Source: Candidatus Woesearchaeota archaeon
GTDB lineage: Archaea > Nanobdellota > Nanobdellia > Woesearchaeales > GW2011-AR4
Length of the DNA: 64,000 nucleotides
Direction: 5' to 3'
Assembly: GCA_016185945.1 (NCBI GenBank)
Contig: JACPMR010000015.1
Coordinates: forward strand, 7,256 to 71,255
The notes under the pieces were generated by a model. It made no database searches. It saw nothing but the letters and a program-made list of their open reading frames with translations, and was not told the origin of the DNA. Numbering within the stretch: the stretch's first letter is position 1; each line of letters begins with the position of its first letter. Shown here in pieces: positions 1,907 to 63,775 of the stretch. A program made the position numbers and the translations under genes.

Positions 1907-1992
1907 GATGTTTTATTAAAAGTGATATTATTTAAAGGTTGCTATTAGACATTAGGTAAAGATTTTATGATTTTCATTTATTTAAAATAATT

Positions 1993-2138
1993 TCAATCAC
2001 GTAGCGACCCATTTTCTGCTTAAGGTGATATGGGTGCCCCGCATACTTCTGTGGCACTATATTGCTTGCTTTAAAGTGCCTGAAGCACAAGCGGATTACT
2101 TTATTCACTTGTACATTTAAAAGTCGCTCTCGGGATTG
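1993..2138. repeat. GC-rich intergenic repeat element, copy A (TIR TCAATCACG ... CGGGATTG, core GATATGGGTGCCCCGCATACTTC)
   Basis: Shares terminal motifs and the GGGTGCCCCGCATAC core with copies at 13120, 23896, 36335, 45966 and 63551; lies in a divergent intergenic region. Confidence 0.65.
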
Positions 2139-2257
2139 TTATTTTTATTTTAATGAGATTTTTATTATACTTTTGGAATTAGTTTAATTTTATCAAATTG
2201 GTCCATATATACCAACAAATAAACTTTATAAACTATACTTCTTTCATTTTTGAGTAT

Positions 2258-10435: not shown

Positions 10436-10530
10436 TAGATGCCCCTGCGGGGACTTTCATAAGAAAAGATTTTTCTTTTCTTACATTGAACCCCGACCTC
10501 AAGGTCCGCAACCTCACGTTCTGGTCCGTT
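10436..10530. other. GC-rich structured element of unknown identity downstream of the rhodanese gene
   Basis: GCCCCTGCGGGG hairpin, GAAAAGATTTTTCTTTTC hairpin, and a terminal CTACAGGGGC resembling the CTACAGGGAAGCC 3' module of the intergenic repeat family; tRNA-like segments but no complete cloverleaf found by hand. Confidence 0.3.
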
Positions 10531-10782
10531 ATACTACAGGGGCAATAAGAAAGTTGAGAAAAGCGATTTATAAAGTTTCTTAATAACAGAATTCAATTTA
10601 TAAAATAAATCAAAATTTAAAAAATTCAAACAAACTGGCTCCCTAGGAAATTTTATAAGTAGCATAGGGAACCCGCTGTGATTCATGCCTTTAAAGTAGA
10701 TATTCAGAGACAAATTTCCGCTTTTGAACAAATTGTCCATATAGAAAATAATTTTTACTACTAATATATAGTGACAAACCGA

Positions 10783-10818: not shown

Positions 10819-11475
10819 ATGGACGGAGATAAATTAGAACCAAGAGTAAGACAACTTGAAGAATTGATAAGGACTGTAGAAGGGGTTAGTGAACAAAAAA
10901 AACAAGAAATGTTGGAATTAGTTCACCAAGTATCACTGCACGACCCACTTACAGAACTTCCTAATAGAACTCTGTTTGCTAGAAGATTTAACGAAGAGGC
11001 ACATAGAGCTGCAAGACATGGGCAGCCTTTAGCAGTTTTAGCACTTGATTTAGACTATTTAAAAAGATATAATGATATGTATGGACATCTACAAGGAGAT
11101 AGGGCGTTAATACACGTTGCATATTTGTTGACTCGACAGAGAAGACCTGAAGACATAGTAGCAAGAATTGGCGGAGAAGAATTTGATGTAGTGCTTCCTG
11201 AAACTGACGAAAGAGGTGCTGTCACAGTTGCTGAAGATATTTTAAGAAGATTTAGATCACATCCAATTAACGATTATGTTGGGCTTCCAGAAAGAGCAGA
11301 AGCAACATATTTCAAAAAAAGAACATTCCGCGATCTTACTATGAGCATTGGCGTAGCTACCTGCACGCCAAAAACTAATTCAGATGCTCTCCTATTACCA
11401 GCCGATGCTGATAAAGCGTTATACTCAGCAAAAGAAGCTGGAAGAGATAGGTATGTTGTTTATCGAAGTAGATAG
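10819..11475 (+). CDS. GGDEF-domain diguanylate cyclase (bacterial-type, intact I-site and A-site)
   Basis: Near-consensus GGDEF domain: DPLTELPNRTLF, LDLDYLKRYNDMYGH, I-site RPED, active site RIGGEEF, C-terminal SIGVA...ALYSAKEAGRDRYVVY; short N-terminal coiled coil; locally elevated GC. Confidence 0.85.
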   Translation: MDGDKLEPRVRQLEELIRTVEGVSEQKKQEMLELVHQVSLHDPLTELPNRTLFARRFNEEAHRAARHGQPLAVLALDLDYLKRYNDMYGHLQGDRALIHVAYLLTRQRRPEDIVARIGGEEFDVVLPETDERGAVTVAEDILRRFRSHPINDYVGLPERAEATYFKKRTFRDLTMSIGVATCTPKTNSDALLLPADADKALYSAKEAGRDRYVVYRSR

Positions 11476-11480
11476 TTCTC

Positions 11481-13037
11481 TCATTCCCCCCAATCCCTCA
11501 AGCTAATCTGCCCTTTTCTTTTGTTTTCAGGCACTTCTAATTGCTCCTGTCCAAGTTGTTTTTTGACGCTTAAGGCAACTTTCTCTCCCAGTAATTGAGA
11601 TAACGTTGCTAAGTCTGTGTTTTTGACATCCTTTATGTCCCTTATTCTGTTCCTGAACAAGATTCTTGCTCTTACCCTTCCTATGTTTTCCAATCTTATC
11701 AAAGGCAGCAATTCTTCTTTTATTCCATACTTCAATCTTAACCTTAACTTGATAATTTCCTTTATCAGTGATTGGTAATGCAATATCTTGCATATTTCCT
11801 CTGTTGCATAAAGAAGCCAGTCTGCAATGTCAAGCTTTGTTCTTAGTTCGCCTGGCCTTATGTTAAATTCCTCCAATAAGAATTCCTCATCCTGTTCACT
11901 AATCCACTGGTAAAACATCATGGCCGTCTTTACGGAGTTTAAAAACTCTTCATATTCCGGCTCGTACATTGACGGCTCGTTCTCAAGCAGGAAATCCGAG
12001 AATTCAAGCAAGGATTCCTGTATTCTGTCATATTCCCTAATGCCGACCCTGAGCAACGGCCTTATTTCAAGGGTATGGGAGAGCATCTGCAGGAAAGAAA
12101 AATCATTGATTTTTTTGTCAGACGCATTTCTCAGGCAGGTTATTATGAAATTTGCTGTCAACGGATCGATGTAAAGCTCGGCAACCCTCTTGCCGATTAA
12201 AGTAGCTTTGAATTTTTCATCTTCAAGCTCGTTTGCACTCGCAAAATCATCTGCAGACGACATTATTAACTCCCATTCCTCGAGCAAATCAATAACTTTG
12301 TTAAGTGTAGAATGCAATTTCCTTAAGTCCTTGAACTGATAAGCATAGAAAGTTTTGTCAAAAAAATCAAAAAGCTGCTTTTTTGTTGTTGTAAAGTTTG
12401 CTGCTATAAGAGATAAAACATAAGTTCTAAGCACTGGCTCGACTGCAAGCTTTGAGTAAATCTCTTCAGGAGTCCCGTCAATGTATTTTTCCTCTATCTT
12501 TTCCTTTTCCGAGTTTGTTGCTGCAATTGCAATTGCTTGCCCTTCTTTGTCATAGTTTGGACGTCCTGCTCTTCCTGACATCTGCATATAATCCAAAACA
12601 GGAATCCAAGTCAAGCCATGCAATGTGTATCTTCTCAAGTCTTTTAAAATAGATCTGTACGCCGGTAAATCTACACCGTACGCAAGAGTTGGCGTGGAAC
12701 ATATTATTTTTATTACTCCACTCCTGAAATTTTCCTCTATCAATCTTCTTTGCTTTTCTACCAAGCCAGCGTGATGGAATGCAATGCCCTTTTTCAGGCA
12801 TAAAGCAAGTCGTTCGCATTGCTTTGTAGGGCGGGAAAGGGTGTTCAAAGCACCCTCTGAAAGCAAGCTTAATTTTTCATCATCAGTTTTTATTTTCTTT
12901 GAAATTTCCTCTGCTGTCTTTTCTGCTGATTTTTTCGTGTTTGCAAAAACCAGTGCCTGCTTTCCAAGCTTTATAGTGTCTAAAGCGATATTTAGAACAG
13001 CACTATCAAATTCATCATCAATTTTGATTGATGCCAT
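11481..13037 (-). CDS. Hel308/Ski2-like helicase lacking the N-terminal RecA1 (Walker A/B) domain
   Basis: Helicase C-terminal motifs LVFANTKKSAEKTA, GIAFHHAGL, STPTLAYGVDLPA, QMSGRAGRP, followed by winged-helix/ratchet/HhH-like regions; ORF begins directly in RecA2; a repeat element lies immediately upstream. Confidence 0.6.
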   Translation of the reverse strand: MASIKIDDEFDSAVLNIALDTIKLGKQALVFANTKKSAEKTAEEISKKIKTDDEKLSLLSEGALNTLSRPTKQCERLALCLKKGIAFHHAGLVEKQRRLIEENFRSGVIKIICSTPTLAYGVDLPAYRSILKDLRRYTLHGLTWIPVLDYMQMSGRAGRPNYDKEGQAIAIAATNSEKEKIEEKYIDGTPEEIYSKLAVEPVLRTYVLSLIAANFTTTKKQLFDFFDKTFYAYQFKDLRKLHSTLNKVIDLLEEWELIMSSADDFASANELEDEKFKATLIGKRVAELYIDPLTANFIITCLRNASDKKINDFSFLQMLSHTLEIRPLLRVGIREYDRIQESLLEFSDFLLENEPSMYEPEYEEFLNSVKTAMMFYQWISEQDEEFLLEEFNIRPGELRTKLDIADWLLYATEEICKILHYQSLIKEIIKLRLRLKYGIKEELLPLIRLENIGRVRARILFRNRIRDIKDVKNTDLATLSQLLGEKVALSVKKQLGQEQLEVPENKRKGQISLRDWGE

Positions 13038-13119
13038 AAGGTAAAAGAAGAAATGATTGTTTATAAAGATTGTTGAATTAAATTTAAAATTCATTGACAA
13101 AAATAATAAAATAAATTAA

Positions 13120-13341
13120 CAATCAGCGACCCATGCACTTCCATGAAGTAAAATGGGTGCCCCGCATACTTCTTCCTGCACTATATTGCAGGCGATAAAG
13201 TGCAACTGCGTGGCATGTGAGCGAGTTCGCTGTTGCGTGCGAGAACGCTCGCACGCTCGCGTTCAGGTCGAGCTCACTCGCATGTCACTGGCTGTGGTTC
13301 CCTCATCGCAAAGGCGGCTACAGGGAAGCCCCGTGATTGAA
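13120..13341. repeat. GC-rich intergenic repeat element, copy B (long form with extra GC hairpins)
   Basis: CAATCAGCGACCCATG ... AAAATGGGTGCCCCGCATACTTC ... hairpins GCGTGCGAG-AACG-CTCGCACGC and GAGCTCACTCGC ... GGCTGTGGTTCCCTCATCGCAAAGGCGGCTACAGGGAAGCCCCGTGATTGAA; TIR CAATCA.. / ..TGATTG. Confidence 0.7.
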
Positions 13342-13406
13342 ATAAATAATTTAATCATTGTTTTTAGGAAGCCTCTTTGATTGAATTATAAATTTATTAA
13401 TGCTTT

Positions 13407-18235: not shown

Positions 18236-18604
18236 TTATCTTACAAACTCGACGTTTTCGAAGCCTTTGAATGCATAATCTCCTGTCACGAATTTTAAGT
18301 TTAATTTTAATGCAGCCACATATCCAATGCAATCAGTAAAGCTAAATCTTTTTTTATTATTTGCAAGTTTGAACTTATTTGCGTCTTTGATTATATCATC
18401 ATCTGTGCTCATGATTAATGGCAGTATAAGATTGTATATTCTTTCTGCCTCTTCATTTCCAAAATTCTTCAAGTAATAGAAATGAATTTCCATAATGTTA
18501 AATATTGTTGTTCCGGCTTCTATCGGGCTGATAGAGTAATTACTGTACTTAGGGTTTTGTGTAGCTATTTCTATCAGCGCATAAGTGTCCAGAAAGTATT
18601 GCAT
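18236..18604 (-). CDS. vapC: PIN-domain ribonuclease toxin (VapC-like)
   Basis: MQYFLDTYALIE (first acidic residue), FTDCIGYVAA, TGDYAF: PIN catalytic residues; start taken at the internal Met so that it abuts vapB. Confidence 0.7.
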   Translation of the reverse strand: MQYFLDTYALIEIATQNPKYSNYSISPIEAGTTIFNIMEIHFYYLKNFGNEEAERIYNLILPLIMSTDDDIIKDANKFKLANNKKRFSFTDCIGYVAALKLNLKFVTGDYAFKGFENVEFVR

Positions 18605-18605
18605 T

Positions 18606-18827
18606 TTACCTATTCCATTCCTTCCTAAGCTCGTCTTTTGCCTTCTGCGCATCAATTTTTAGATGCTTGCTTGCGCCCCACAATTTGCTTAAATCAACTT
18701 TCGGGATAATCTCGAAAGTAACTTCCTGGCCGACTTTTAGTTTTCTCTCTTTGACATAATGCGGAGGAACAGTCAAAACAATGCTGTTTCCTGACTTCCT
18801 GACTCTTGTAGTTGGCATATTAATCAC
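18606..18827 (-). CDS. vapB: AbrB/MazE-type antitoxin (VapB-like)
   Basis: 73 aa; SpoVT/AbrB swapped-hairpin signature VRKSGNSIVLTVPPHYVKERKLKVGQEV; directly upstream of and overlapping the PIN gene. Confidence 0.65.
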   Translation of the reverse strand: MINMPTTRVRKSGNSIVLTVPPHYVKERKLKVGQEVTFEIIPKVDLSKLWGASKHLKIDAQKAKDELRKEWNR

Positions 18828-18917
18828 CTATGTAATACATATGTAATACGGAAGTATTTAAAGGTTTTGGGTAGGAATATAGGAAATATTTAAATTATCA
18901 AAACTTATCCTGTATAT

Positions 18918-19703
18918 ATGAAAGAGAAAGCTGTAGAAAAAGTGGAAAATTTCATTGATTTATCCATGCCTATTGTGAAAGCCGCTGTTAACATACCTAC
19001 TTTAGGTTTTGGTGGAGCTGTTATCGAAATATTTCAAACTGACTACCGATTATCAAAAGAAAGGAATATTAAAGAGTTTTTTGAAAGTATAGACAAAAAA
19101 CTAAAGGAAATAGGAATACAAATTGATGAGACAATTAAAGAAAGGCTGAAATCTCCTGAATTCTATCAGATTATCACAAGAATACTAACTAAAATTCAAA
19201 TAGAAAGTAGAAAAGAAATAAGAGAGATTTATTCAAATTTACTTATTCAATTACTTAAGGAAGAACCAAAAATTAATTTTAATCAAAAATTATTTTATTT
19301 AGAAATATTGGGAAATTTAAATGAAGACCATATTAAAATATTAAGTGTTTTTTATAAGGAAGGGGAAGTAAAAAGCAGATTTAGACTAGATTCACTTTAT
19401 GAAAAGACTCGATGTTATGAAACCAAGAAATTAAAAAAAGGTGATCCAGATTTTGATTTTATGGGATTTAAAGAACGGAAAACTCTAAATTATGCGAAAT
19501 CTTCTTATTTTAAAGGTTTAGTAAGTGACTTAGTTGGTAAACAAATAATTGATATTTTTCAAGAAATTGAATCAACCCCAGAATACAAAGAAGAGGGAGA
19601 TGTTAGAAAAGAGTTAAAATCTATTGAATCAGAAATAAAGGAAGAATATGAAGGAACAGAATTGGGATTAAGTTTCTATAAATTTGTTCTGACTTATAAA
19701 TGA
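18918..19703 (+). CDS. hypothetical protein, first gene of a two-gene module (possible Abi-like partner)
   Basis: 261 aa, no recognisable catalytic motif; hydrophobic Gly-rich N-terminal segment IPTLGFGGAVIEIF; co-oriented, 35 bp upstream of a PD-(D/E)xK nuclease-like gene. Confidence 0.4.
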   Translation: MKEKAVEKVENFIDLSMPIVKAAVNIPTLGFGGAVIEIFQTDYRLSKERNIKEFFESIDKKLKEIGIQIDETIKERLKSPEFYQIITRILTKIQIESRKEIREIYSNLLIQLLKEEPKINFNQKLFYLEILGNLNEDHIKILSVFYKEGEVKSRFRLDSLYEKTRCYETKKLKKGDPDFDFMGFKERKTLNYAKSSYFKGLVSDLVGKQIIDIFQEIESTPEYKEEGDVRKELKSIESEIKEEYEGTELGLSFYKFVLTYK

Positions 19704-19738
19704 AAAATCAAAATTTTTAAAGGAATTCAGATTAATTT

Positions 19739-20635
19739 TTGAACATGGATAATTCAATCAAAGAAAAGATAAAAAATCACATTTTAGAGCATGGATTTTT
19801 ATTAGAAGAAGAAACTAAAACTTTCTTAGAGTTACAAGGATGGGAATGTGAAAGAAATGCTCATTTCGTCGATCAAGATGTTCCAACCGAATCAAGAGAG
19901 ATTGATATAATTGCCCGTAATTTTAGTTGGTATAAAAATTTTGACCCAAAAAGGATTCTAGTTAGATTTGATTTAATAATTGAATGTAAAAACTATAAAG
20001 ATCCAATAGTATTTTTTTCTACTAATAAAACTAGAGAGGACAAAGAAATTTTCTTTTCAAAAGAATTGATCAATTTTTTTACTACCCATGATACTGTTTA
20101 CGTGCCTATTCCAGAATCACAAAATAAAAAAGTTATATCTGTTGCTGAATTCTTGAAAATTGATAAATATCATCATTTTTTTAATAGTAATTTAAAAGCC
20201 ACAAACCTTAATTTATCAAGAGTTAAGTCTGATTATTCATTCTCAAATATAAAATTATATGAAGCTACTATATTACCATTAATCAAAGCAAATGACTGGT
20301 ACAGAGCAGACCGTAAGAATAGTGTTAAACTTTTTGCTGGAAATAGTATCCACGTACCATTTTCATTTATTATTCCAATTTTAGTACTTGGTAATGATTT
20401 TTTTGAAGCATATTTTGAAAATGGAGAGCTTAAATTAAAAAAATCAGATTATATTCAATTTATTTCTGATTATAGATCCAAAAATATAAATGGACGTTTC
20501 CAAATTGATATAGTGAATAAAAGTTATTTTGAAAATTATCTAAAAGAAAAAGTAGATGTGACTATTAATAAGGTTAGTGAAGTTATATTAAATAACTTCC
20601 AAGATATAGATAGATTTAGTCATATTTCAAATTAA
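19739..20635 (+). CDS. PD-(D/E)xK (restriction-endonuclease-fold) nuclease-like protein with C-terminal domain of unknown function
   Basis: N-terminal segment EIDIIARNF ... RFDLIIECKNY supplies a D ... D-x4-E-C-K motif typical of Mrr/NERD-like nucleases; about 200 aa of unassigned C-terminus. Confidence 0.5.
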   Translation: MNMDNSIKEKIKNHILEHGFLLEEETKTFLELQGWECERNAHFVDQDVPTESREIDIIARNFSWYKNFDPKRILVRFDLIIECKNYKDPIVFFSTNKTREDKEIFFSKELINFFTTHDTVYVPIPESQNKKVISVAEFLKIDKYHHFFNSNLKATNLNLSRVKSDYSFSNIKLYEATILPLIKANDWYRADRKNSVKLFAGNSIHVPFSFIIPILVLGNDFFEAYFENGELKLKKSDYIQFISDYRSKNINGRFQIDIVNKSYFENYLKEKVDVTINKVSEVILNNFQDIDRFSHISN

Positions 20636-20643
20636 AAATATAA

Positions 20644-21039
20644 TTATTTAATAATTGAAGTATTAATAAGATTTTGTGTAGTTCCTAAATATCCTCCAAA
20701 CCATAAAGCTGCTATGATTAAGATAGAAAAGGAACCGTATGCTAAAAAACTAATTTGATAGAACTCAACTGGAAGACTTTCTTTTGATAGATAAGCTACT
20801 AAGGCAATTATACCTATAATTGTACCAATATTAAGATAAATTTGAAACCAGTTAGGTAAATTATTGAAATAATGATAAAAGATCTGCCATAATAATAAAG
20901 AATTTAAAAAAATGCCAACTCTTCCTATATAAGATTGTCTAAATTCAACAATACCTGCAACTACTAATCCTATCATAGCAATATATGATAGGGATTTTGG
21001 TAGTATTATTAATGTCTCAATCATTAAAGGTGTTGTCAT
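20644..21039 (-). CDS. small integral membrane protein (4 TM), unknown function
   Basis: 131 aa, four hydrophobic helices. Confidence 0.4.
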   Translation of the reverse strand: MTTPLMIETLIILPKSLSYIAMIGLVVAGIVEFRQSYIGRVGIFLNSLLLWQIFYHYFNNLPNWFQIYLNIGTIIGIIALVAYLSKESLPVEFYQISFLAYGSFSILIIAALWFGGYLGTTQNLINTSIIK

Positions 21040-21082
21040 GGTTATAAATTAATAAAAATAATGTTTAAATTTATTGACTAAG

Positions 21083-21400
21083 TTAAGAGTTTATTACATC
21101 TTGTGCAATTTTCTTATAAATTAAATGTAATAAATTATATTTATTATTTTTTTTATTTATCTGGAAATATTTTGATTTATCATCTTCCCTTGTTTGTACA
21201 ATTAAATTTTTATCTAATAAATCTTTAATTGCATTTCTAACTGCTGTTCTTGATAATCCAGTACCTTTATGAATTTGAGTTATGGTAAAATCAAAATTCT
21301 CTCCTAAAAAAAAGAAATCAAGAACTTTAATGGTATTATTAGTACCAAAAACATTTTCAAAAAGGGGTTTACCTAAAAGTAATTTTTGTTTCATCGCCAA
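21083..21400 (-). CDS. winged-helix transcriptional regulator
   Basis: 105 aa; HTH segment ITQIHKGTGLSRTAVRNAIKDLLDKNLIV. Confidence 0.5.
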   Translation of the reverse strand: MAMKQKLLLGKPLFENVFGTNNTIKVLDFFFLGENFDFTITQIHKGTGLSRTAVRNAIKDLLDKNLIVQTREDDKSKYFQINKKNNKYNLLHLIYKKIAQDVINS

Positions 21401-22124: not shown

Positions 22125-22352
22125 ATGGAGCCTGAAAACGCCCTTGTAGTATTCCAAGGCAAGAAAATAAGGAGAACTTGGTTTAATGATGAGTGGTGGT
22201 TTGTAGCCGTTGATATTGTAGAGGCATTGACTGACTCAAAAGACCCTAATGGCTATTTAAAGGATATGCGAAGGAGGGATGAAGGCTTTGCTCAAGGATG
22301 GGGGCAAATTGCCACCCCCCTTTCTATTGATACACCACTTCCACTTTCTTAA
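22125..22352 (+). pseudogene. Bro-N (phage antirepressor N-terminal) domain fragment
   Basis: 75 aa: ALVVFQGKKIRRTWFNDEWWFVAVDIVEALTDSKDP fits the Bro-N pattern (F-F ... IR ... WF-A-DVA--LG); truncated, GC-richer than surroundings, 3' end overlaps the radical SAM gene. Confidence 0.5.
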
Positions 22353-23814
22353 CAACCTTCCCAGTCACGCTCCTCAACATCTGCCCCGTAACCTCAATGT
22401 CATAAAACTTCTTCAACTCTAGTCTTCCTTTAACCCCAACAATGATAGGATATGTTCCAAATTGACGGCAAAAAGTTGTATTCCCATCATAAATCTCGGC
22501 ATAGCAATTAGTCAAAACTGTTCCATTTGGAATTACTCTCTGGAGCATTGGCCAGTCAATCTTCTGCCTTATGTCATTGCGCCATTTCCAATATAATTTC
22601 TTGTTCTTCTTCAGGAACTTGTCTTTGCCTTCATTGTACAAAGAAGTGCCTTCAAATATTGCAACCTGCCTAATATTTATCCTGCGAAGCATCAATCCTT
22701 CATTGTAAATTCTTGAAAGCCATTTCATGTTTTCTTCATGCGTTTTCTTGGTTTCATTCCTCAAGCCGAATATTATGTTGACTCCGGGCAAAAACTTAGG
22801 AAGTCCATCAGAGCCTCCTTCAGAGCCATACTTGTTCAAAATCTTAATTGCTTCATAAGCAATATTTGGCGGAGTGTTCAAAGTGTTTGCCTTGACAACT
22901 TCCATGTCAAATGATTCAATTCCAAAAGCAGCTATGTTGCCTGAAGTGCAATACTTCACAACAGCTTTTGTGATTGCAAAATCATTCTGCCTGTCCATCA
23001 CAACTTTTACAGGGTTTACATTGTCAATGTGCAAAACTTTTATGCCAGGGCATTTCTCATTGATTTCTTTTAACAATTCAGCAGCATAAGGCAAAGTGTA
23101 AAAGCATGTCTGCTTTCCCAATCTAAAGTAGCGAGCGCCAAGCTTGTAAAACTCAATAATTTCATTCAGAACATCCTCTTTATTCCTGAACTCAACCTTA
23201 TTCTTCAAAGGCTCTGTGCAGAAAGAGCATTTTCCAATGTCGCAGCCATGCCCTGTCTCAATCTCAACCATTCTCAAGCCAGGAATCTGTTTTATGATTG
23301 ATGCCCCTTTAACGGAATATTCCTTAACATCCTTGTACGGAAAATTAAACATCAAATGCTCAACCTTGTCAAAAATGCTTAAATCCGCCTTCTCAAAGAA
23401 CCTGCCTCCGAATAATTGCGTGCCAAACACGGCAGGCCCTGTCAAAATCTTCCTGCATTTCAAATCCTTTAACATCGGGATAATCTCGTGCAAAGTGCCA
23501 GGCACAGCAGAAAGATACTTTCCGGGAACGTGAACGCCAAGAACAACAACCAAAGTTTGTGTTTCCTCCAATATTTTTTCAATATTTTTGTGATTTACAG
23601 TCAGATTGTATGTTGTTATGTCGGTTTTTTGTGATAATTTTGTCTCCTTGACAATTCCGTTATGCTTCTTCCATAACCTCAAATCATCAATTGTCAGGTA
23701 ATTAACATCTTCATTAAGGTAGCCGGCTATGTACCTTGGGTATGTGCCAAGGTAAGGAGGCACTCCCAAGCCAGCGGGCTCGTCAGTATAGCAGTCAATT
23801 ATAGTATAAGTCAT
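22324..23814 (-). CDS. radical SAM superfamily protein (archaeal subfamily, unusual CX4CX2C cluster)
   Basis: 496 aa; Cys cluster GHGCDIGKCSFCTEP (C-x4-C-x2-C); N-terminal domain of unknown function (MTYTIIDCYTDEPAGLGVPP) is a possible B12-binding-like module. Confidence 0.65.
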   Translation of the reverse strand: MTYTIIDCYTDEPAGLGVPPYLGTYPRYIAGYLNEDVNYLTIDDLRLWKKHNGIVKETKLSQKTDITTYNLTVNHKNIEKILEETQTLVVVLGVHVPGKYLSAVPGTLHEIIPMLKDLKCRKILTGPAVFGTQLFGGRFFEKADLSIFDKVEHLMFNFPYKDVKEYSVKGASIIKQIPGLRMVEIETGHGCDIGKCSFCTEPLKNKVEFRNKEDVLNEIIEFYKLGARYFRLGKQTCFYTLPYAAELLKEINEKCPGIKVLHIDNVNPVKVVMDRQNDFAITKAVVKYCTSGNIAAFGIESFDMEVVKANTLNTPPNIAYEAIKILNKYGSEGGSDGLPKFLPGVNIIFGLRNETKKTHEENMKWLSRIYNEGLMLRRINIRQVAIFEGTSLYNEGKDKFLKKNKKLYWKWRNDIRQKIDWPMLQRVIPNGTVLTNCYAEIYDGNTTFCRQFGTYPIIVGVKGRLELKKFYDIEVTGQMLRSVTGKVVKKVEVVYQ

Positions 23815-23895
23815 AAGAAAATAGTATTCTTAGCAACTTAAAAATCTTTTTATGTGTTATAAGTTTATACGCAATTAAAATATAAATAAAAAATT

Positions 23896-24044
23896 CAATC
23901 ACGATGGCGACCCATGCGCTTCCTAAGCTAAAATGGGTGCCCCGCATACTTCTTTGGCACTTTATCATCAGCAATCAAGTGCAAGCATCAGAGGCTGTGG
24001 TTCCCTTATCACGATGGTATAGACAGGGAAGCCCAGTGATTGAA
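23896..24044. repeat. GC-rich intergenic repeat element, copy C
   Basis: CAATCACGATGGCGACCCATG ... AAAATGGGTGCCCCGCATACTTC ... CAATCAAGTGCAAGCATCAGAGGCTGTGGTTCCCTTATCAC ... CAGGGAAGCCCAGTGATTGAA; clear TIR CAATCACG / CAGTGATTG. Confidence 0.7.
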
Positions 24045-24169
24045 AATTTTTAAAACTTAGTTTTTTATGTACGAATTGATTATATTCTTTAAAATATATA
24101 TCAAACTTGCATTTTTAGCAAAAAGCTTAAATAGACATATTTTGAAATATTCTCTTTACACACAAGGAG

Positions 24170-24535
24170 GTGGTGTATATCGCAGATGTACAGAAAACAT
24201 ATGCAATGGTTATAGGTGCAGTTCTTGTGCTTGTAGGGTTAATCGGATTCTTCAATGCGCCTATATTTGGAGTGTTTGGAGTCAACACAGCGCAGAACTT
24301 GTTGCATCTTGTGGGAGGAGCCTTAATGCTCTGGTTTGGATACAAAGGAAGCGGCAAGACAGCCAACACATGGCTTGGCTACATCTCAGCTGTTGTAGCT
24401 GTTCTCGGCTTTGTGCCAGGAGCAAAGGATTTGCTTGCAAGCATTTTTGCCATCAACATGGCAATAACATGGCTGCACGCAGCAATAGCTGTTGTTTCAT
24501 TGGGAGTTGCTTTTGGAGTTAAAGGTGCAGCATAA
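24170..24535 (+). CDS. small membrane protein (DUF4383-like, 4 TM)
   Basis: 121 aa, GC-richer codon usage; GTG start 7 nt after a strong AAGGAGG Shine-Dalgarno; preferred over the overlapping ORF 24067..24522, whose cysteine-rich translation looks spurious. Confidence 0.5.
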   Translation: MVYIADVQKTYAMVIGAVLVLVGLIGFFNAPIFGVFGVNTAQNLLHLVGGALMLWFGYKGSGKTANTWLGYISAVVAVLGFVPGAKDLLASIFAINMAITWLHAAIAVVSLGVAFGVKGAA

Positions 24536-24914: not shown

Positions 24915-25000
24915 ATTGTTGCGATTTCCGCTGAGTTGAGCGAGCGAGATATGAACGCGAGCTTGCGAGCGTTCTCGCAATCGCCATGCAAGCATCGCCT
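24915..25000. repeat. GC-hairpin module of the repeat family (copy D, partial)
   Basis: GCTGAGTTGAGCGAGCGAG ... TTGCGAG-CGTT-CTCGCAA ... CCATGCAAGCATCGCC; shares the GAGCGAG hairpin module with copies B and K. Confidence 0.5.
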
Positions 25001-34928: not shown

Positions 34929-35034
34929 TACTAATAAATCTAAACTTGTTGCTTTTAAATCTTTCTCAAAATGTTTGAAAATATTAAAAATTCGTTCAAT
35001 AAATACTTCAATAATATATATCAACAATCACGAG

Positions 35035-35172
35035 AGCTTCCTTTAGAAGTAAGCATGATGAAGGAGACCTGCTTTTGCAGAAGGCACTTTCTATCGCAGC
35101 AATCAAGTGCAGGAAGAAGAGGCTGTGGCTCCCTTACCACAAAAGCAGCTACAGGGAAGCCAGATTTTTGAA
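35035..35172. repeat. GC-rich intergenic repeat element, copy E
   Basis: CAATCACGAGAGCTTCC ... GAAGTAAGCATGATGAA ... CAATCAAGTGCAGGAAGAAGAGGCTGTGGCTCCCTTACCACAAAAGCAGCTACAGGGAAGCC; right end degraded (CAGATTTTTGAA). Confidence 0.65.
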
Positions 35173-35198
35173 TAATAATTAGAAATCTTAATTGACTT

Positions 35199-35465
35199 TT
35201 AATACCAACTGCCTCGCCAAGTTGAGTGCCCCCATTGAATGAGCAAGTCGACTCCCAAGCGCTCTACTTGTAATGGCACGTCACAGGCGCCAAAGCACGA
35301 GCCCATCCATATTACTACATTGGCATTTGTATTTTTCTCTATTGCCTGCTGTATCTCTTTTGCCCTTGGCTTCAAGCCGTCCGGCAGCTGAACGCAGACC
35401 AGCTTTGAGTTTTCCTTGGTGATTCTTTCTATGACTTTGTGAAGTTCAAGGTCGTATGGGTCCAT
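35199..35465 (-). pseudogene. Dph2 (diphthamide synthesis 2-(3-amino-3-carboxypropyl)histidine synthase) N-terminal fragment
   Basis: 88 aa: LVCVQLPDGLKPRAKEIQQAIE ... VVIWMGSCFGACDVPLQVERLGVDLLIQWGHS matches the Dph2 N-terminus (P. horikoshii VLIQSPEGL ... YGACD ... LGHS), then diverges (TWRGSWY-stop) exactly where repeat copy E begins; the remaining ~240 aa of Dph2 are absent. Confidence 0.6.
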
Positions 35466-36076: not shown

Positions 36077-36334
36077 TTTAGTATGTTGAGCTGTTATAAT
36101 CCTGGTTCGGAGTGTAATCTACCTGCTTCTCGTTCTTTGCAGAAGGATTGTCCTCTGCTATTGCGCATGCCAAACACATTTTAACCCCCAACTTTTGTAA
36201 TATGTTATTACTTCGTAGTGATATAACTAGTATATAAAGTTTTCGATAAATATAGTAAAATAGATAATTTCAATATAGAAAATAAGTACTATAAACAATT
36301 ATTAAAGTATATCCAACAAAAACAGAAACGACTT

Positions 36335-36458
36335 TTGTAAGTAGGCATGATAAAAGTAAACCGTTGTGAGTTAAGTGCTATAGTGCTAAGCGTTCAAGCA
36401 CTGCAGCAGTATGCGGGGCACCCATATTACATGGTTGTGAACATGGCGCTGATTGATT
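36335..36458. repeat. GC-rich intergenic repeat element, copy F (rearranged; core in inverted orientation)
   Basis: GTAAGTAGGCATGATAAAAG (forward, as in copy E) followed by GCAGCAGTATGCGGGGCACCCATATTAC (reverse complement of the GGGTGCCCCGCATAC core) and the terminal GCGCTGATTGATTG (reverse complement of CAATCAATCAGCGC). Confidence 0.6.
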
Positions 36459-36852: not shown

Positions 36853-38907
36853 TTAAACAAACAACGGCACCAGAACTAGGGTTATTGTACTTAACAGCTT
36901 AATCAAGACATGCAAGCTTGGGCCTGCTGTGTCCTTAAATGGGTCTCCTATTGTATCTCCAGTTACTGCTGCCTTGTGAGCTTCACTTCCCTTGCCGCCA
37001 TGTTCGCCTTCTTCAATAAGCTTCTTTGCATTGTCCCATGCACCGCCGCCTGTGTTTAGCAACAATGCCATCAAAATGCCTGTAATAGTTGCAACCATCA
37101 AGTAAGCTGCAGCAGCCTCATACTTAAGAACAACTCCGACAATAACGGTTACAACAACAACAAGTAACCCAGGCAATATCATTTCTTTCAAAGACGCCTT
37201 AACACATATGTCAACAACTTTGGCGTAGTCGGGCTTTTCCTTGCCTGTCATTATGCCTTTTTTCTCCTTCCACTGCCTCCTGACTTCATGGACAATTGTG
37301 TAGGCAGCATCTCCAACTGCCCTTATGGCAAATGCGCTGAACAAAAATATCAGCATTGCACCAATCAAAGCGCCAACAAAGACATCAATCTTTGCAATAT
37401 CAACTGTAACAACTTTCATGCCTGTGTGCTTTGCAACATCATCAAGGTAAGCTGTAAACAAAAGAAAAGCTGCCAAAGCAGCACTTCCAATAGCGTAGCC
37501 TTTTGTCAATGCCTTTGTTGTATTGCCTACTGCATCAAGCTTGTCTGTTCTTTTTCTAACAGCACTAGGAGCATTGCTCATCACAACAATGCCGCCTGCA
37601 TTATCGGTTATTGGACCAAAATTATCCATTGCAAGTATGTAAGCTGCTGTTGCAAGCATCCCCATTGTGGCAATTGCTGTCCCATAAAGTCCGCCATGCG
37701 CAAGGTTACTCATCTGCCCAAACTTGAAGGAAACAAGCAAGGCAATTGAAAGAACAATTACAGGCAATACAGTTGCTTCAAGCGCAACTGCAAATCCACT
37801 TATTATGTTTGTTGCATGCCCTGTCAAAGATGCTTTGGCTATGCTCTTTACAGGCCTGTAAGTTGATTCTGTATAGTAAACTGTGATCCAGACAATCAAA
37901 ATGCTTGTTATTATGCCAACCAATCCAGCATAGAAAAACCATATGTTGTTAAGAAGCCATTTTGTTGCTGCATAGAATGCGATTGCTGCCAAGAAGCTTG
38001 TTATGTAATAGCCCCTATTCAATGCAGTCATGGGGTTTTCGTTTTCATTTCTTAGCTTGACAGACATAATGCCAATCATTGTTGCTATCAATCCAAATGC
38101 CCTGACAACCAAGGGGAACAAAACTCCTTTAATGCCGAAGTATGGAAATAAAGCAACTCCAAGTATCATTGCTCCTATGTTTTCAGCAGCAGTGCTCTCA
38201 AACAAATCTGCTCCTCTGCCAGCGCAGTCTCCAACATTATCGCCAACCAAGTCCGCAATAACTGCCGGATTTCTAGGATCGTCTTCTGGAATTCCTTTTT
38301 CAATCTTGCCTACCAAATCAGAGCCGACATCCGCTGCTTTTGTGTAGATTCCGCCGCCAAGCTGGGCAAACAGCGCAACAAAGCTAGCGCCAAATCCATA
38401 GCCAACAATCAGGAAAGGAACTTCCTTTGGATCTGTGCCAATGCTAAACAATGAGTAAATCAAGGCAACCCCTAGCAAGGACATTGCAACTATTACAATG
38501 CCGGATATAGCGCCTGAGCGCAACGCAACAACAAAAGCGTCATTCATGCTTTTCCTTGCAGCGCTTGCTGTCCTTATATTAGCCCTTATGGAAATCCACA
38601 TGCCGACAATGCCTGCAATAGCAGAGCTTACTGCCCCAAACAGGAAAGCAATGCTTGTTCGCCATCCCAAACCAGTATTGCCGAAGAATGCATATGCTGC
38701 ATAAATGATAATAGCAAGGACAATTGAGAGTATTGCTATTGTTGTGTACTGCCTCTTCAGGAATGCTTCTGCGCCTATCTTTATTGCAGCTGCAACTTCC
38801 TGCATTGCTTCCGAGCCAGTGTCTTTTTTTAGAATCTGCCTTGTCAAGTAGCCGGCAAAAAGCAATGCCAAGACGCTAATGGTAATAACAATACTGAGAT
38901 AAACCAT
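36853..38907 (-). CDS. hppA: membrane-bound proton-translocating pyrophosphatase, K+-independent type
   Basis: 684 aa, about 15 TM; GYGFGASF ... DVGSDLVGK ... [16 protein letters not shown] ... [20 protein letters not shown] (Lys at the A/K position marks K+-independence) ... DNAKK; start at MVYLSIV. Confidence 0.85.
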
Positions 38908-41944: not shown

Positions 41945-42150
41945 CAATCACTAACGAGAGCAATTTTTTGGGATTAAATTGCATTAAAACAATGAGATTA
42001 AATCAATCCCGAGAGCGTCCTTTATAAGTAATCGCGAATAAGGAAACCAGCTTTTGCTATCGCACTTTATCTTTAGCAATCAAGTGCAGATAGAAGTGGC
42101 TGCGGTTCCCTTATCACAAAAGCAGCTACAGGGAAGCCCTCGTGATTGAA
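41945..42150. repeat. GC-rich intergenic repeat element, copy G (possibly two nested/tandem units)
   Basis: CAATCACTAACGAGAGC ... second TIR-like CAATCCCGAGAGCG at about 41994 ... CAATCAAGTGCAGATAGAAGTGGCTGCGGTTCCCTTATCACAAAAGCAGCTACAGGGAAGCCCTCGTGATTGAA. Confidence 0.7.
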
Positions 42151-42186
42151 TTATAATTTTAATATAATTAGTATAATGATGTAATT

Positions 42187-44142
42187 TCAAACCATTAAAG
42201 GCACAAAAACAATCGCAACTATTGACATCAGCTTAATCAAGATATTCAAAGAAGGTCCTGCTGTGTCTTTGAAAGGATCTCCAACTGTGTCGCCGACAAC
42301 TGCTGATTTATGAGCTTCAGAGCCTTTGCCGCCAAGGTTGCCTGCCTCTATGTACTTTTTTGCATTGTCCCATGCACCGCCAGAATTAGCCATGAAAATT
42401 GCCAGAGAAAAACCAGTTACAATAGAGCCGACAAGCAGCCCTCCTAATGCCTCCAAGCCAAAAAAATAGCCAACTATAATAGGGGCAAAAATTGCCAACA
42501 AGGAAGGCATTACCATCTGCCTTAAAGCGCTTCTTGTGCTTATTGCTATGCATCTCTCATAGTCGGGCTTTGCCTTGCCTTTAGCAAGTCCTTTTATTTC
42601 CTTCCATTGTCTTCTTACTTCCTCAACAATCCCAGAAGCTGCTTTTCCCACTGCCTGCATTGCAAATGAACTGAACAGGAAAGGAAGCATCCCGCCAATG
42701 AACAAGCCAATTATTACATTTGGGCTAGAGATGCTCATTACTTGAATTTTTGTAATTTGAGTGAAGCTTGCGAATAATGCTAATGCAGTCAATGCAGCAC
42801 TTCCAATTGCAAAGCCCTTTCCAATAGCTGCGGTTGTGTTGCCGACTGCATCAAGCAATTCTGTTTTTTCTCTGACATCTTTGCCAACCTTTGCCATCTC
42901 TGAGATGCCTGCTGCATTATCAGCCACTGAGCCGTAAGTGTCGATAGCAAGTGTTATGCCCAAAGTTGAAAGCATTCCCACTCCTGCAATTGCTATGCCA
43001 TAAAGCCCTGCAAACTTGTAAGCAACTAAAACAGCAATTGAAACCACAAGAACAGGAATCAAGGTTGAGAACATTCCGACAGCAAGCCCTTGAATTACAT
43101 TTGTGCCTGCACCTGTCCTTGCTGCAGCTGCAATGCTTTTTGTCGGAGCATTTTTGTTTGATGTCATGTATTCTGTGAATAAGCCGATTACAACACCGAC
43201 AATCAAGCCCGCCAATGCTGCATAGAAAATTCCAATGTCAAGTTTCTGGTATTTGACAAGCAAAAATGAGAAAATTGCAGTCAATATAGTGCTTATGTAC
43301 AAGCCATTGTTTAATGCATTAAACAAATGCTTTTCATCCTTTGCCCTTACAAAAAATATTCCAATTAATGAAGCTAAAATCCCTAATGCAGCCAAAGCCA
43401 AAGGAAATATTACATGGCTAACTCCAAATAAAGCCACGCCTATAACCATTGCAGCTATTATGCTGTTGACATAACTTTCAAACAAGTCAGCACCCATGCC
43501 TGCGACATCACCTACATTGTCGCCCACATTATCGGCTATAACTGCTGGATTTCTTGGGTCGTCTTCTGGTATCCCTTTCTCGACCTTGCCAACCAAGTCA
43601 GCGCCAACATCCGCTGCCTTTGTATAAATTCCTCCCCCAACCCTTGCAAATAAAGCAATTGAAGATGCGCCAAAGCCAAATCCAAATATTATGTTTGGAT
43701 CGCCAAAAATTTGGTAAAGAATTGTAACTCCTAATAAGCCAATGCCTACAACGCTTAACCCCATGACAGAGCCAGAGTAAAAAGCAAGCCTTAAGCCCTC
43801 CCCTATATGCTTTTTAGTTGCCTCTGTTGTTCTTGAGTTTGCTCTTGTGGCAATCCTCATTCCAATATTTCCTGCCAATGCAGAAGAAAAGCCGCCAATT
43901 ATGAAAGATATTGCAAGCTTTTGCCCGTTTTCAAGAAAGAAAAACATTATTAATGCAACAATAAGTATGAAAATAACCAAAAATTCATATTCTTTTTTCA
44001 GAAAAATCAAGGCTCCTTTATGGATTGCCTCAGAAATTTCCTGCATTTTGGCAGTGCCTGCTGGCTTCTTTAATATGTAGAAAGCGAGAAATAAGGCAAC
44101 TAGCAATGATAAGATGCTTATGCTGATAATGAATTGAAGCAT
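42187..44142 (-). CDS. hppA: membrane-bound pyrophosphatase, K+-dependent type (H+ or Na+ pumping)
   Basis: 651 aa; GFGFGASS ... DVGADLVGK ... [16 protein letters not shown] ... [20 protein letters not shown] (Ala at the A/K position marks K+-dependence) ... DNAKK. Confidence 0.85.
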
Positions 44143-45912: not shown

Positions 45913-45965
45913 TTTTTACAAAATATTAATTTGATTTTTTATTGGTCAATAATAAGTTCTAAAAC

Positions 45966-46137
45966 CATCAAGCAACCCTTTTTCTTCCAGATAGTGATAT
46001 GGGTGTCCCGCAGTAACAATTGCACTTGATTGCTTTGCTTTATAGTGCAACATTCAAAAGCGGTTTACTTTCAACGGCAAAGTCCGTTGACACCTTGTGG
46101 GCATAAAGCCACATTTACAAAAGTCGCTCTTGATTTG
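45966..46137. repeat. GC-rich intergenic repeat element, copy I
   Basis: CATCAAGCAACCC ... GATATGGGTGTCCCGCAGTAAC ... CAACGGCAAAGTCCGTTGACACCTTGTG (shared with copy K) ... AAAAGTCGCTCTTGATTTG (matches the copy A end AAAAGTCGCTCTCGGGATTG). Confidence 0.65.
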
Positions 46138-46255
46138 TTAGATTTTTATTAATTATTTTTTAATTAAATTATTTAATTTGTAATGAAATTATTCTTGTCA
46201 ATTCGTATTCTGGAAATATTACTAAAGTTACTCCCTTGTTTAAACAATCTTCTAC

Positions 46256-56624: not shown

Positions 56625-56975
56625 TTTATAAATTTAAAAATAAATATAAATCTAACTATATGATACCCATTATCTGCTTCAGCGATGTGGGTACCCCTCA
56701 TATAACTTGTTCCACCTAATGATGAACAATAAAGTGCATTAAGCACACTGCCTCGTACTGATGAGGAACCCATGGAGTAGTGCTATCTAGCATAGCATGA
56801 AAAATTGTATCCGAAGCGAGAGAGCAGAAAAAATTATTTGAAATCGAAGTACATTCTTAAATTACAAGAAACATTGCCAACCACAAAAATCTTTTAGCAA
56901 ATTGTTGTGGTTGGCAAGATAGCAAACCACAGCTATTATACCCATCTATTTCTGTGGTTTGCTATATAAGTAAAT

Positions 56976-63550: not shown

Positions 63551-63730
63551 AATCCGAGACCCTTCGAAAACCAAAGATTTTCGATAGCTCGCAATTCCTA
63601 CGGAATTGCTTTGCATTGGATAGCTTCGCTGAAATGGGTGCCCAAAAAATAATCTTTGCACTTTATTCCTTACATTATAGTGCTACTGGCGTATGCATGG
63701 TACCTGTGCTTGATTCACGGGAGAAAGAGG
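63551..63730. repeat. GC-rich intergenic repeat element, copy L
   Basis: AATCCGAGACCC ... GCAATTCC-TACG-GAATTGC hairpin ... GAAATGGGTGCCCAAAA ... CTTGATTCACGGGAG (reverse-TIR-like). Confidence 0.55.
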
Positions 63731-63775
63731 ATTGTTTATTGGTTGTTTTATTTGATTTTATTTATTGTCTTGTAG

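Follow-up and report, generated by a model that had tools for sequence, protein, structure and literature searches.

Hel308-type helicase as a probable two-gene product in Woesearchaeales archaea, and a hairpin repeat family that adjoins its C-terminal gene

The stretch of DNA analyzed here comprises 64 kb of a Candidatus Woesearchaeota archaeon (contig JACPMR010000015.1 of assembly GCA_016185945.1; hereafter the window, to which all positions refer unless another locus is named) and contains an open reading frame (ORF) at 11481-13037 for a protein of the Hel308/Hjm helicase family that lacks the first of the two RecA domains of the motor. We conclude, at a probability of roughly 0.85, that Woesearchaeales encode this helicase as two unlinked genes and that the window ORF is the C-terminal one (C-half); the RecA1 domain and the first ~19 residues of RecA2 would be supplied by a separate gene of 220 amino acids (aa) elsewhere in the genome (N-half). 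Directly upstream of the C-half lies one copy of a family of intergenic hairpin repeats, which is treated as the second subject below.

The C-terminal half gene

The product of ORF 11481-13037 starts with MASIKIDD and is identical to the NCBI entry MBI2654390.1 (HYX02_06305, Candidatus Woesearchaeota; the record is on a 311-kb contig). A Pfam scan assigned Helicase_C to residues 80-160 (E=3.6e-11) and the archaeal ratchet domain PF21280 Helicase_dom4_arc to the region further downstream (E=4.7e-30, 104.5 bits), placed the winged helix HTH_61 close to its cut-off (E=6e-5, 23.8 bits vs 24.3) and matched the helix-hairpin-helix (HhH) family HHH_5 weakly (18.8 bits vs a cut-off of 27), and it found no DEAD or ResIII domain in the ORF. 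The protein is collinear with residues 228-713 of the 720-residue Pyrococcus furiosus Hjm (2zj2; E=1.8e-91), the alignment running unbroken through the winged-helix and ratchet domains and on to residue 713, and it also aligns to Hel308 of A. fulgidus and S. solfataricus. All RecA2 motifs are intact (IV LVFANTK, IVa FHHAGL, V TPTLAYGVDLP, VI QMSGRAGR). Of the parts by which a Hel308 is recognized, the chain has the RecA2 motifs, winged-helix domain 3 and ratchet domain 4, and it has no RecA1 with motifs Q, I, Ia, Ib, II and III. The initial annotation, made from the letters of the window, had described the ORF as a Hel308 without RecA1 that starts at RecA2 and continues through winged-helix, ratchet and HhH-like regions, and this description is borne out by the Pfam result and the Hjm alignment, HHH_5 itself being weak. 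Neither a RecA1 sequence nor a relic of one was detected in the window: a Walker-A scan matched only the Cdc48 and A-ATPase genes, and tblastn with five N-half proteins gave a best E of 0.01.

Is the short form a peculiarity of this one genome? More than 120 clusters (90% identity) of homologous proteins that are 77-84% identical to the C-half share its start residue and its domains and have no DEAD domain; they come from Woesearchaeota and are, save for a few alternative start calls, 517-520 aa long. Among the best 150 hits of a search of 1.84 billion 50%-identity representatives, 42 were C-half-only proteins whose N-terminus aligns with that of the window protein and 82 were full-length Hel308 enzymes (~700-770 aa, or longer with inteins), the remainder consisting of 6 long, intein-like proteins without RecA1, of which P0121 was read, and 20 fragments. 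P0121 (1040 aa) has a window-like start and an intein after STPTL in motif V. The closest single-chain relative, P0135 (726 aa), is 53% identical to the C-half over its C-terminal part. Comparison with the closest relative L073 (93% aa identity) yields a synonymous divergence (dS) of 0.83 and a ratio of non-synonymous to synonymous divergence (dN/dS) of 0.047, and in comparisons with ~80%-identical relatives synonymous sites are saturated at a dN of 0.10-0.15. Since dN/dS is so small and dN stays low where dS is saturated, the C-half is under strong purifying selection and is not a pseudogene.

Large inteins are frequent in Hel308 homologues, split and intact alike (P0121, P0124, P0128, P0133, P0140 and long full-length forms), and occupy sites after STPTL in motif V (C-half position ~119) and near motif VI (~153). 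The locus L047, on a 288-kb contig, matches the C-half from position ~119 on only, which suggests an intein there too.

The surroundings of the gene are conserved as well, two PKD/cadherin-like surface proteins preceding the C-half in relatives and a tRNA-Arg and a nitroreductase gene following it. Its start codon is the same in repeat-free relatives as in the window. Upstream of this ATG cross-genome alignment is limited to the last ~45 nt, and within them a (C/T)TTTATAAA(C/T) box is found at constant distance from the ATG in 9/9 loci (the window and eight relatives). Judged by the archaeal TATA consensus this box is probably the C-half's own promoter, and a leaderless or near-leaderless mRNA is predicted.

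A separate gene for the RecA1 domain

When residues 1-223 of P0135, the closest full-length relative, were used as query, more than 120 clusters were retrieved that have a DEAD domain only, are 219-223 aa long (one atypical entry of 274 aa excepted) and are 59-65% identical to the N-terminus of P0135; clusters with a named source are from Woesearchaeota or Nanoarchaeota. In a second search with the N-half P0365, 119 among the 120 proteins listed are 77-100% identical to the query and nearly all have 220 aa. By sequence identity the N-half appears as conserved as the C-half, for which alone dN/dS was calculated. The N-half carries motifs Q, I (PTASGKT), Ia, Ib, II (DEVH) and III (SAT), matches Hjm residues 17-213 (E=5e-63), and ends in all cases with ...WRPVKLHKGIYLNGEIEF followed by the stop codon. 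A TATA box is also present before this gene, and its neighbourhood is conserved in six independent records (enolase and His_Phos on one side, FtsY/SRP54, prefoldin and phosphoribosyl pyrophosphate synthetase on the other).

In Hjm, domain 1 comprises residues 1-197 and domain 2 residues 198-399 (PMC2636818). On this scale the N-half contains RecA1 plus ~19 residues of RecA2. An AlphaFold model of the N-half (predicted local distance difference test score, pLDDT, 89) places the last RecA1 strand at residues 196-199, followed by a loop and a terminal beta-hairpin at 210-219.

Two probable halves of one helicase

How do the two proteins fit together? On Hjm the N-half ends at ~216 and the C-half starts at ~213-217, and their summed length of 220 + 518 = 738 aa compares with 720-730 aa for intact enzymes. 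Each half is an ORF of its own, with start codon, stop codon and putative promoter, and jointly they cover the intact homologue Hjm without overlap or gap. They are unlinked, the other half not being found within 4-10 kb of either. Both are present in one metagenome-assembled genome (MAG), GCA_016181305.1 (NC_groundwater_206), where the pair was found via accession proximity (HYT53/JACOZN) and both translations were verified: the C-half P0026 (MBI2101838.1), 83% identical to that of the window, is on contig JACOZN010000013.1 and the N-half P0483 (MBI2101898.1) on contig JACOZN010000014.1. A split-gene arrangement had been named in the initial annotation as one of two explanations, together with the proposal to search for a separate RecA1 ORF as a finding that would speak against gene disruption; such an ORF exists across the lineage, including this MAG, as a 220-aa half that abuts the C-half on Hjm.

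As a working model, each half gene would be transcribed from its own TATA promoter and the two proteins would most likely assemble non-covalently, the terminal hairpin of the N-half docking onto RecA2. There it may complete the RecA2 sheet of the C-half and so hold the subunits together. Such an assembly would rebuild the ATP-binding cleft between the RecA domains and result in a two-subunit motor that otherwise equals an ordinary Hel308. That the halves associate physically, and that the pair has ATPase and helicase activity, are predictions from the protein sequences.

Several points weigh against a two-gene helicase. The N-half of the window's own genome (HYX02) is absent from the window and is predicted to lie elsewhere in that genome. 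Co-occurrence in the same genome rests on one MAG, in which binning errors are possible, and a second pair, J4204 (MBS3100817 and MBS3101400), is unconfirmed, its one indication being an accession distance of 583. The same genomes could in addition hold an intact Hel308 paralogue. Finally, an AlphaFold model of the C-half, built on a shallow alignment, reached a pLDDT of 49 and was discarded.

A scan of the GTDB-representative genomes with a chimeric N+C probe, for which poor peptide patterns were chosen, returned 28 C-half and 17 N-half loci with no assembly shared between them, and one unrelated weak bacterial match. Two candidates for closer linkage were rejected: a match in L006 that seemed to span N- and C-half is a tblastn artefact, the upstream ORF there encoding the PKD protein, and N-half P0404 and C-half P0038, each listed with a contig of 9257 bp, are not a one-contig pair, the contig of P0404 being without a C-half.

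Could the C-half instead act alone, as a DNA-binding or clamp-like protein without motor, next to a 220-aa DEAD protein that is an independent single-RecA protein? The two genes are unlinked and situated in different neighbourhoods, the association of the halves is a prediction, and in full-length Hel308 enzymes domains 3-5 bind DNA on their own. We nevertheless consider this very unlikely, as strict conservation is seen for the ATPase-coupling motifs (IV, V, VI) of the C-half, and the N-half is most similar to Hel308 RecA1, breaks off exactly at the point from which the C-half continues, and includes the first RecA2 strands; moreover, the degree of conservation is similar in both halves, and a single RecA1 or RecA2 domain of superfamily 2 (SF2) helicases does not hydrolyze ATP productively. 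Hardly conceivable is a joining of the halves by split-intein splicing or RNA trans-splicing, with the structured repeat helping to bring the parts together. Precedents are found in DPANN archaea, namely split inteins as in the DNA polymerase of N. equitans and trans-spliced tRNAs (PMC3655853), inteins occur in this helicase family, and copies of the structured repeat are neighbours of the C-half not only in the window but also in several relatives. However, helicase sequence extends in both halves right to the junction, where intein fragments and Cys/Ser...HN residues are lacking, and protein splicing is excluded because the junction leaves no room for intein fragments; nor is there a repeat copy within ~4 kb of the N-half gene in ~20 loci, or near the C-half in L019 and L078.

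The repeat upstream of the C-half

The third alternative is that the C-half was truncated by insertion of a repeat or a linked rearrangement and is now a decaying pseudogene. It derives from the initial annotation, which had noted a 222-bp repeat copy at 13120-13341, in place of the expected 5' part of the gene, and a second truncated gene abutting a repeat copy. The copy is real, a covariance model of the family (R1, built from five copies) placing it at 13118-13342, between the stop codon of the PKD gene at 13407 and the helicase promoter. It does not occupy the place of a lost 5' part: in relatives the spacer between PKD gene and C-half measures only 35-125 bp and is never coding (125 bp in L001 and 54 bp in L006, both repeat-free; 35 bp in L078-L080), as compared to 369 bp in the window, and the extra length in the window is the repeat. 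The 13118-13342 copy is composite, a ~142-nt family element with a nested, near-perfect 83-nt hairpin rich in GC. The 93%-identical relative L073 has a ~150-nt element at the same site without this hairpin, and the site is repeat-free in L001 and L006, which are 82% identical, and in L078. Because L073 has the element without the 83-nt hairpin and other relatives have the split gene without the element, the split gene would have existed already when, in the recent ancestry of the window genome, the element inserted between the end of the PKD gene and the promoter of the helicase gene, and the hairpin would have been nested later. The upstream repeat is unrelated to the helicase split.

The second short gene piece adjoining a repeat copy encodes an N-terminal piece of Dph1/2 (Dph2 piece). 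It is a stand-alone gene for 88 aa, and 402 members make up its 90%-identity cluster (among 15 listed, 12 have 88 aa, the others 89, 91 and 105 aa); a second Dph1/2 piece is absent from the 64-kb window. A split of Dph1/2 in DPANN archaea has been published (PMC6143161; also PMC6349945). As both 'truncated' genes are old and stable splits, their position next to repeats is a coincidence and the suggested pattern dissolves. By a rough estimate, ~10 copies in ~70 intergenic spacers give a chance of ~0.08 that two given genes both adjoin a copy. With the 518-aa form and its start found in more than 120 clusters and in repeat-free relatives, a dN/dS of 0.047, a conserved promoter, homologues that host inteins in catalytic motifs, and a Dph2 piece conserved throughout its cluster, repeat-associated disruption of the helicase gene is extremely improbable, the repeat copy directly upstream and that beside the Dph2 piece notwithstanding.

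A piece of 28-42 nt related to the 83-nt hairpin occurs at 24938-24979 of the window, and others at L021 4781-4824 and L001 7642-7656 and 7945-7961. At the corresponding internal point, the repeat copy of L064 has a 33-nt hairpin whose ends are similar to those of the 83-nt one. Possibly the 83-nt hairpin is itself mobile, as a second small element beside the repeat; alternatively, it may be a stem by which members of the repeat family are optionally extended.

Architecture and distribution of the repeat family

At least ten copies of the family, whose elements typically measure ~150 nt, are present in the window (Table 1), all of them intergenic, and the five strong ones, including that at the helicase, are all in plus orientation. 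A terminal stem of TTCAATCAC paired with GTGATTGAA encloses, in this order, a left-arm hairpin, a central hairpin GCACTT...AAGTGC and a right-arm hairpin. The right arm is the inverted left-arm module, and the element therefore scores on both strands. At least four types of arm sequence exist (GACCCAT/ATGGGT, TCCTTT/AAGGA, GACTTTT/AAAGT and GGYTCCCT/AGGGAAGCC), which are freely combined between the arms. In an alignment of 14 copies 79% of the cells are paired vs at most 46% in slid controls, and the covariation score is 0.136 vs 0.096 in shuffles, a value reached by 0/500 shuffles; pairs changed on both sides number four in the left arm, three in the central hairpin and one in the right arm. 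The folds are stable (z = -4.2 to -5.6). Cues to the strand conflict, as minimum free energies favour the minus strand and G-U pairs in the extended central helix the plus strand.

Table 1. Coordinates of the half gene, its putative promoter and the repeat copies in the window and at the corresponding site of relatives
Feature	Locus	Position	Strand	Remarks
Hel308/Hjm C-terminal half gene, 518 aa	window	11481..13037	-	RecA2, winged helix, ratchet domain 4, putative HhH domain 5
Putative TATA box TTTATAAA of C-half gene	window	13060..13067	-	centre ~26 nt upstream of ATG
Repeat copy between PKD-gene stop and helicase promoter, strong	window	13118..13342	+ (as scored)	R1 89.4 bits, E=3.8e-24
Nested 83-nt GC-rich hairpin	window	13206..13288	.	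folds at -48.7 kcal/mol
Repeat copy, strong	window	1992..2141	+	R1 130.6 bits; intergenic
Repeat copy, strong	window	23894..24045	+	R1 163.7 bits; kept in a 94%-identical metagenome contig (L072)
Repeat copy, strong	window	35023..35173	+	R1 137.9 bits; 26 nt after Dph2-piece stop
Repeat copy, strong	window	42002..42151	+	R1 146.1 bits
Repeat copy, medium, diverged	window	45960..46139	+	R1 40.5-43 bits on two strands; enlarged arm loop
Repeat copy, medium, diverged	window	36315..36458	+	R1 33.7-37 bits; arm modules swapped
Repeat copy, weak/degenerate	window	10625..10729	+	R1 16.4 bits, E=0.035; between GGDEF gene and tRNA-Arg promoter
Repeat copy, weak	window	56649-56798		
Repeat copy, weak	window	63580-63743		
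Repeat copy between C-half stop and tRNA promoter	L001	7709-7830		
Repeat copy between C-half stop and tRNA promoter	L006	2828-3013		
Repeat copy between C-half stop and tRNA promoter	L008	5515-5686		
Repeat copy between C-half stop and tRNA promoter	L015	3402-3530		
Repeat copy between C-half stop and tRNA promoter	L024	5600-5737		
Dph1/2 N-terminal piece, 88 aa	window	35199..35465	-	Pfam Diphthamide_syn positions 1-56 of 302

The repeat was not matched in Rfam, the only match in the window at gathering score being a tRNA and permissive scans of two copies remaining at chance level, and viral contigs gave 0 matches. A metagenome scan found it in nine contigs, all of one sample; one of these, L072, is a 94%-identical orthologue of window 22352-24273 with the same repeat copy. 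Covariance-model matches in ~28 C-half loci all fall into the spacers adjoining the helicase. A copy between the C-half stop and the tRNA promoter is found in five relatives, and the degenerate copy at 10625-10729 is its counterpart in the window. In relatives that are synonymously saturated these downstream copies may go back to an ancient insertion that was retained, mark a hot spot for insertion, or be kept for a function under selection.

Mobile element or functional structure?

The repeat is best read as a non-autonomous element resembling miniature inverted-repeat transposable elements (MITEs) or REPINs. It exists as many dispersed non-coding copies with terminal inverted repeats, and its presence is polymorphic at orthologous sites: among L001, L006, L078, L073 and the window the site upstream of the helicase is filled only in the latter two, and the downstream site is filled in L001, L006, L008, L015 and L024 and empty in L019 and L078. 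To be counted against mobility are the lack of a transposase among the window ORFs scanned and, by ORF inspection, beside eight metagenome copies, the AT-rich flanks without a consistent target-site duplication, and the lack of an autonomous partner in the sequences searched. Literature searches found no description of MITEs in DPANN archaea.

What else could maintain such hairpins? The copies might be genes or cis-elements of a structured RNA outside Rfam, such as a terminator, a stabilizer in the 3' untranslated region or a small RNA, and not mobile DNA at all. This deserves serious consideration, given that the hairpins are maintained through compensatory changes and fold stably, that a copy lies 26-65 nt past the upstream stop codon in four tandem gene pairs, that flanks are T-rich, and that the copies between C-half stop and tRNA promoter are recognizable across saturated synonymous divergence. 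We still regard it as unlikely in view of presence and absence at orthologous sites, the one nested insertion, the shuffling of arm modules between left and right, the location of some copies in divergent promoter regions, and a pseudo-palindrome that scores on both strands as MITEs and REPINs do. The two explanations are not exclusive, as repetitive extragenic palindromic (REP) elements and bacterial interspersed mosaic elements (BIMEs) are both mobile and functional, and a role as terminator or structured RNA is compatible with mobility of the repeat. A bolder and quite doubtful proposition is that the repeats constitute a functional class of structured RNA or single-stranded DNA of Woesearchaeales, absent from Rfam and selected at particular sites, the clearest candidate being the site between the Hel308 C-half and the tRNA-Arg gene. 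If this were true, the selected repeats would be bidirectional terminators, expression insulators, or possibly hairpin substrates or regulators tied to the split helicase.

Neighbouring genes and other features of the window

Convergent with the helicase gene and ending 5 bp from its stop codon is an ORF for a GGDEF domain protein (diguanylate cyclase; 10819-11475, plus strand, 218 aa, E=8e-41). Its position is geneless in relatives, where the C-half is followed directly by the repeat and/or tRNA-Arg, and this ORF, with a domain unusual for an archaeon, may be a recent acquisition. The tRNA-Arg(GCG) gene beyond it (10440-10543, minus strand) contains a 31-nt intron inside the T-loop and has its own AACTTTATAAA promoter ~25 nt upstream. 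The precursor was missed by ARAGORN and Rfam, and ARAGORN calls a tRNA-Arg(gcg) after removal of the intron. Orthologous tRNA-Arg genes follow the C-half in relatives; in L078 and L017 the intron adjoins the anticodon instead.

Two long minus-strand ORFs 5.3 kb apart, 36853-38907 (684 aa) and 42187-44142 (651 aa), look paralogous and are read, from their sequence alone, as putative membrane pyrophosphatases. A 193-nt direct repeat, D1 (72% identical), corresponds to their common coding 3' ends, and both ORFs are accompanied by a repeat-family copy that follows a nearby stop codon at a distance of ~36-38 nt. The region 18236-21400 includes a stretch of very low GC content (0.20-0.28); in and beside this stretch, next to unannotated ORFs, are an ORF with a PIN domain (18236-18652) and one for an Abi_alpha abortive-infection protein (18918-19703), and the region may be a small defence or mobile islet.

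Significance and relation to known systems

In public annotation the C-half appears as 'hypothetical protein' or 'helicase-related protein' and the N-half as 'DEAD/DEAH box helicase', and sequences marked 'partial' were removed from a survey of Ski2-like helicases in archaea published in 2024 (PMC10946056). Literature searches found no paper that describes a split Hel308. Recognition of a two-subunit Hel308 would correct the inventory of repair and replication-restart proteins of Woesearchaeota and avoid scoring the enzyme as partial or missing. A natural SF2 motor with its RecA domains on separate chains would also offer a system for studying the assembly of the ATP cleft and the coupling between domains, and an old, lineage-wide split bears on the question whether DPANN splits are recent decay or stable architecture. 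The repeat family for its part can serve to trace how the genomes of an uncultured lineage have recently changed, and it may represent a new structured element.

The repeat resembles REPINs, BIMEs and MITEs in being short, non-coding, dispersed between genes and bounded by terminal inverted repeats, in its two inverted hairpin modules around a central spacer, and in its variable presence at orthologous sites, with one copy that carries a nested insertion. It differs from them in its archaeal host, in the mixing of four arm-module types between the arms, and in that no REP-associated tyrosine transposase (RAYT), IS200/IS605 or other transposase and no autonomous parent was found in the sequences searched.

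With the Hel308/Hjm enzymes of known structure, which are Ski2-like SF2 DNA helicases (2zj2; A. fulgidus 2p6r; S. solfataricus 2va8), the C-half shares motifs IV-VI and the succession of RecA2, winged-helix and ratchet domains, followed by a putative HhH domain, and the N-half gene of relatives contributes the match to Hjm 17-213 with motifs Q to III. In contrast to these enzymes the Woesearchaeales form consists of two polypeptides, and the break is found ~19 residues inside RecA2 and not at a domain border. Split genes are known from N. equitans, for example those of reverse gyrase (NEQ318/434) and of a 'large helicase-related protein' (NEQ003/409) (PMC3655853, PMC6349945), and Dph1/2 is split in Woesearchaeota and others (PMC6143161). 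As in these and other splits of Nanoarchaeota and DPANN archaea, two unlinked ORFs in a reduced genome stand for a gene that is single in other archaea, and post-translational assembly is presumed; here, however, the family is Hel308 and not Lhr or reverse gyrase, and the split is widespread and old within Woesearchaeales rather than confined to a single genome. The Hel308 split is neither a disrupted gene nor a new mechanism and adds to the recognized split-gene trait of DPANN archaea.

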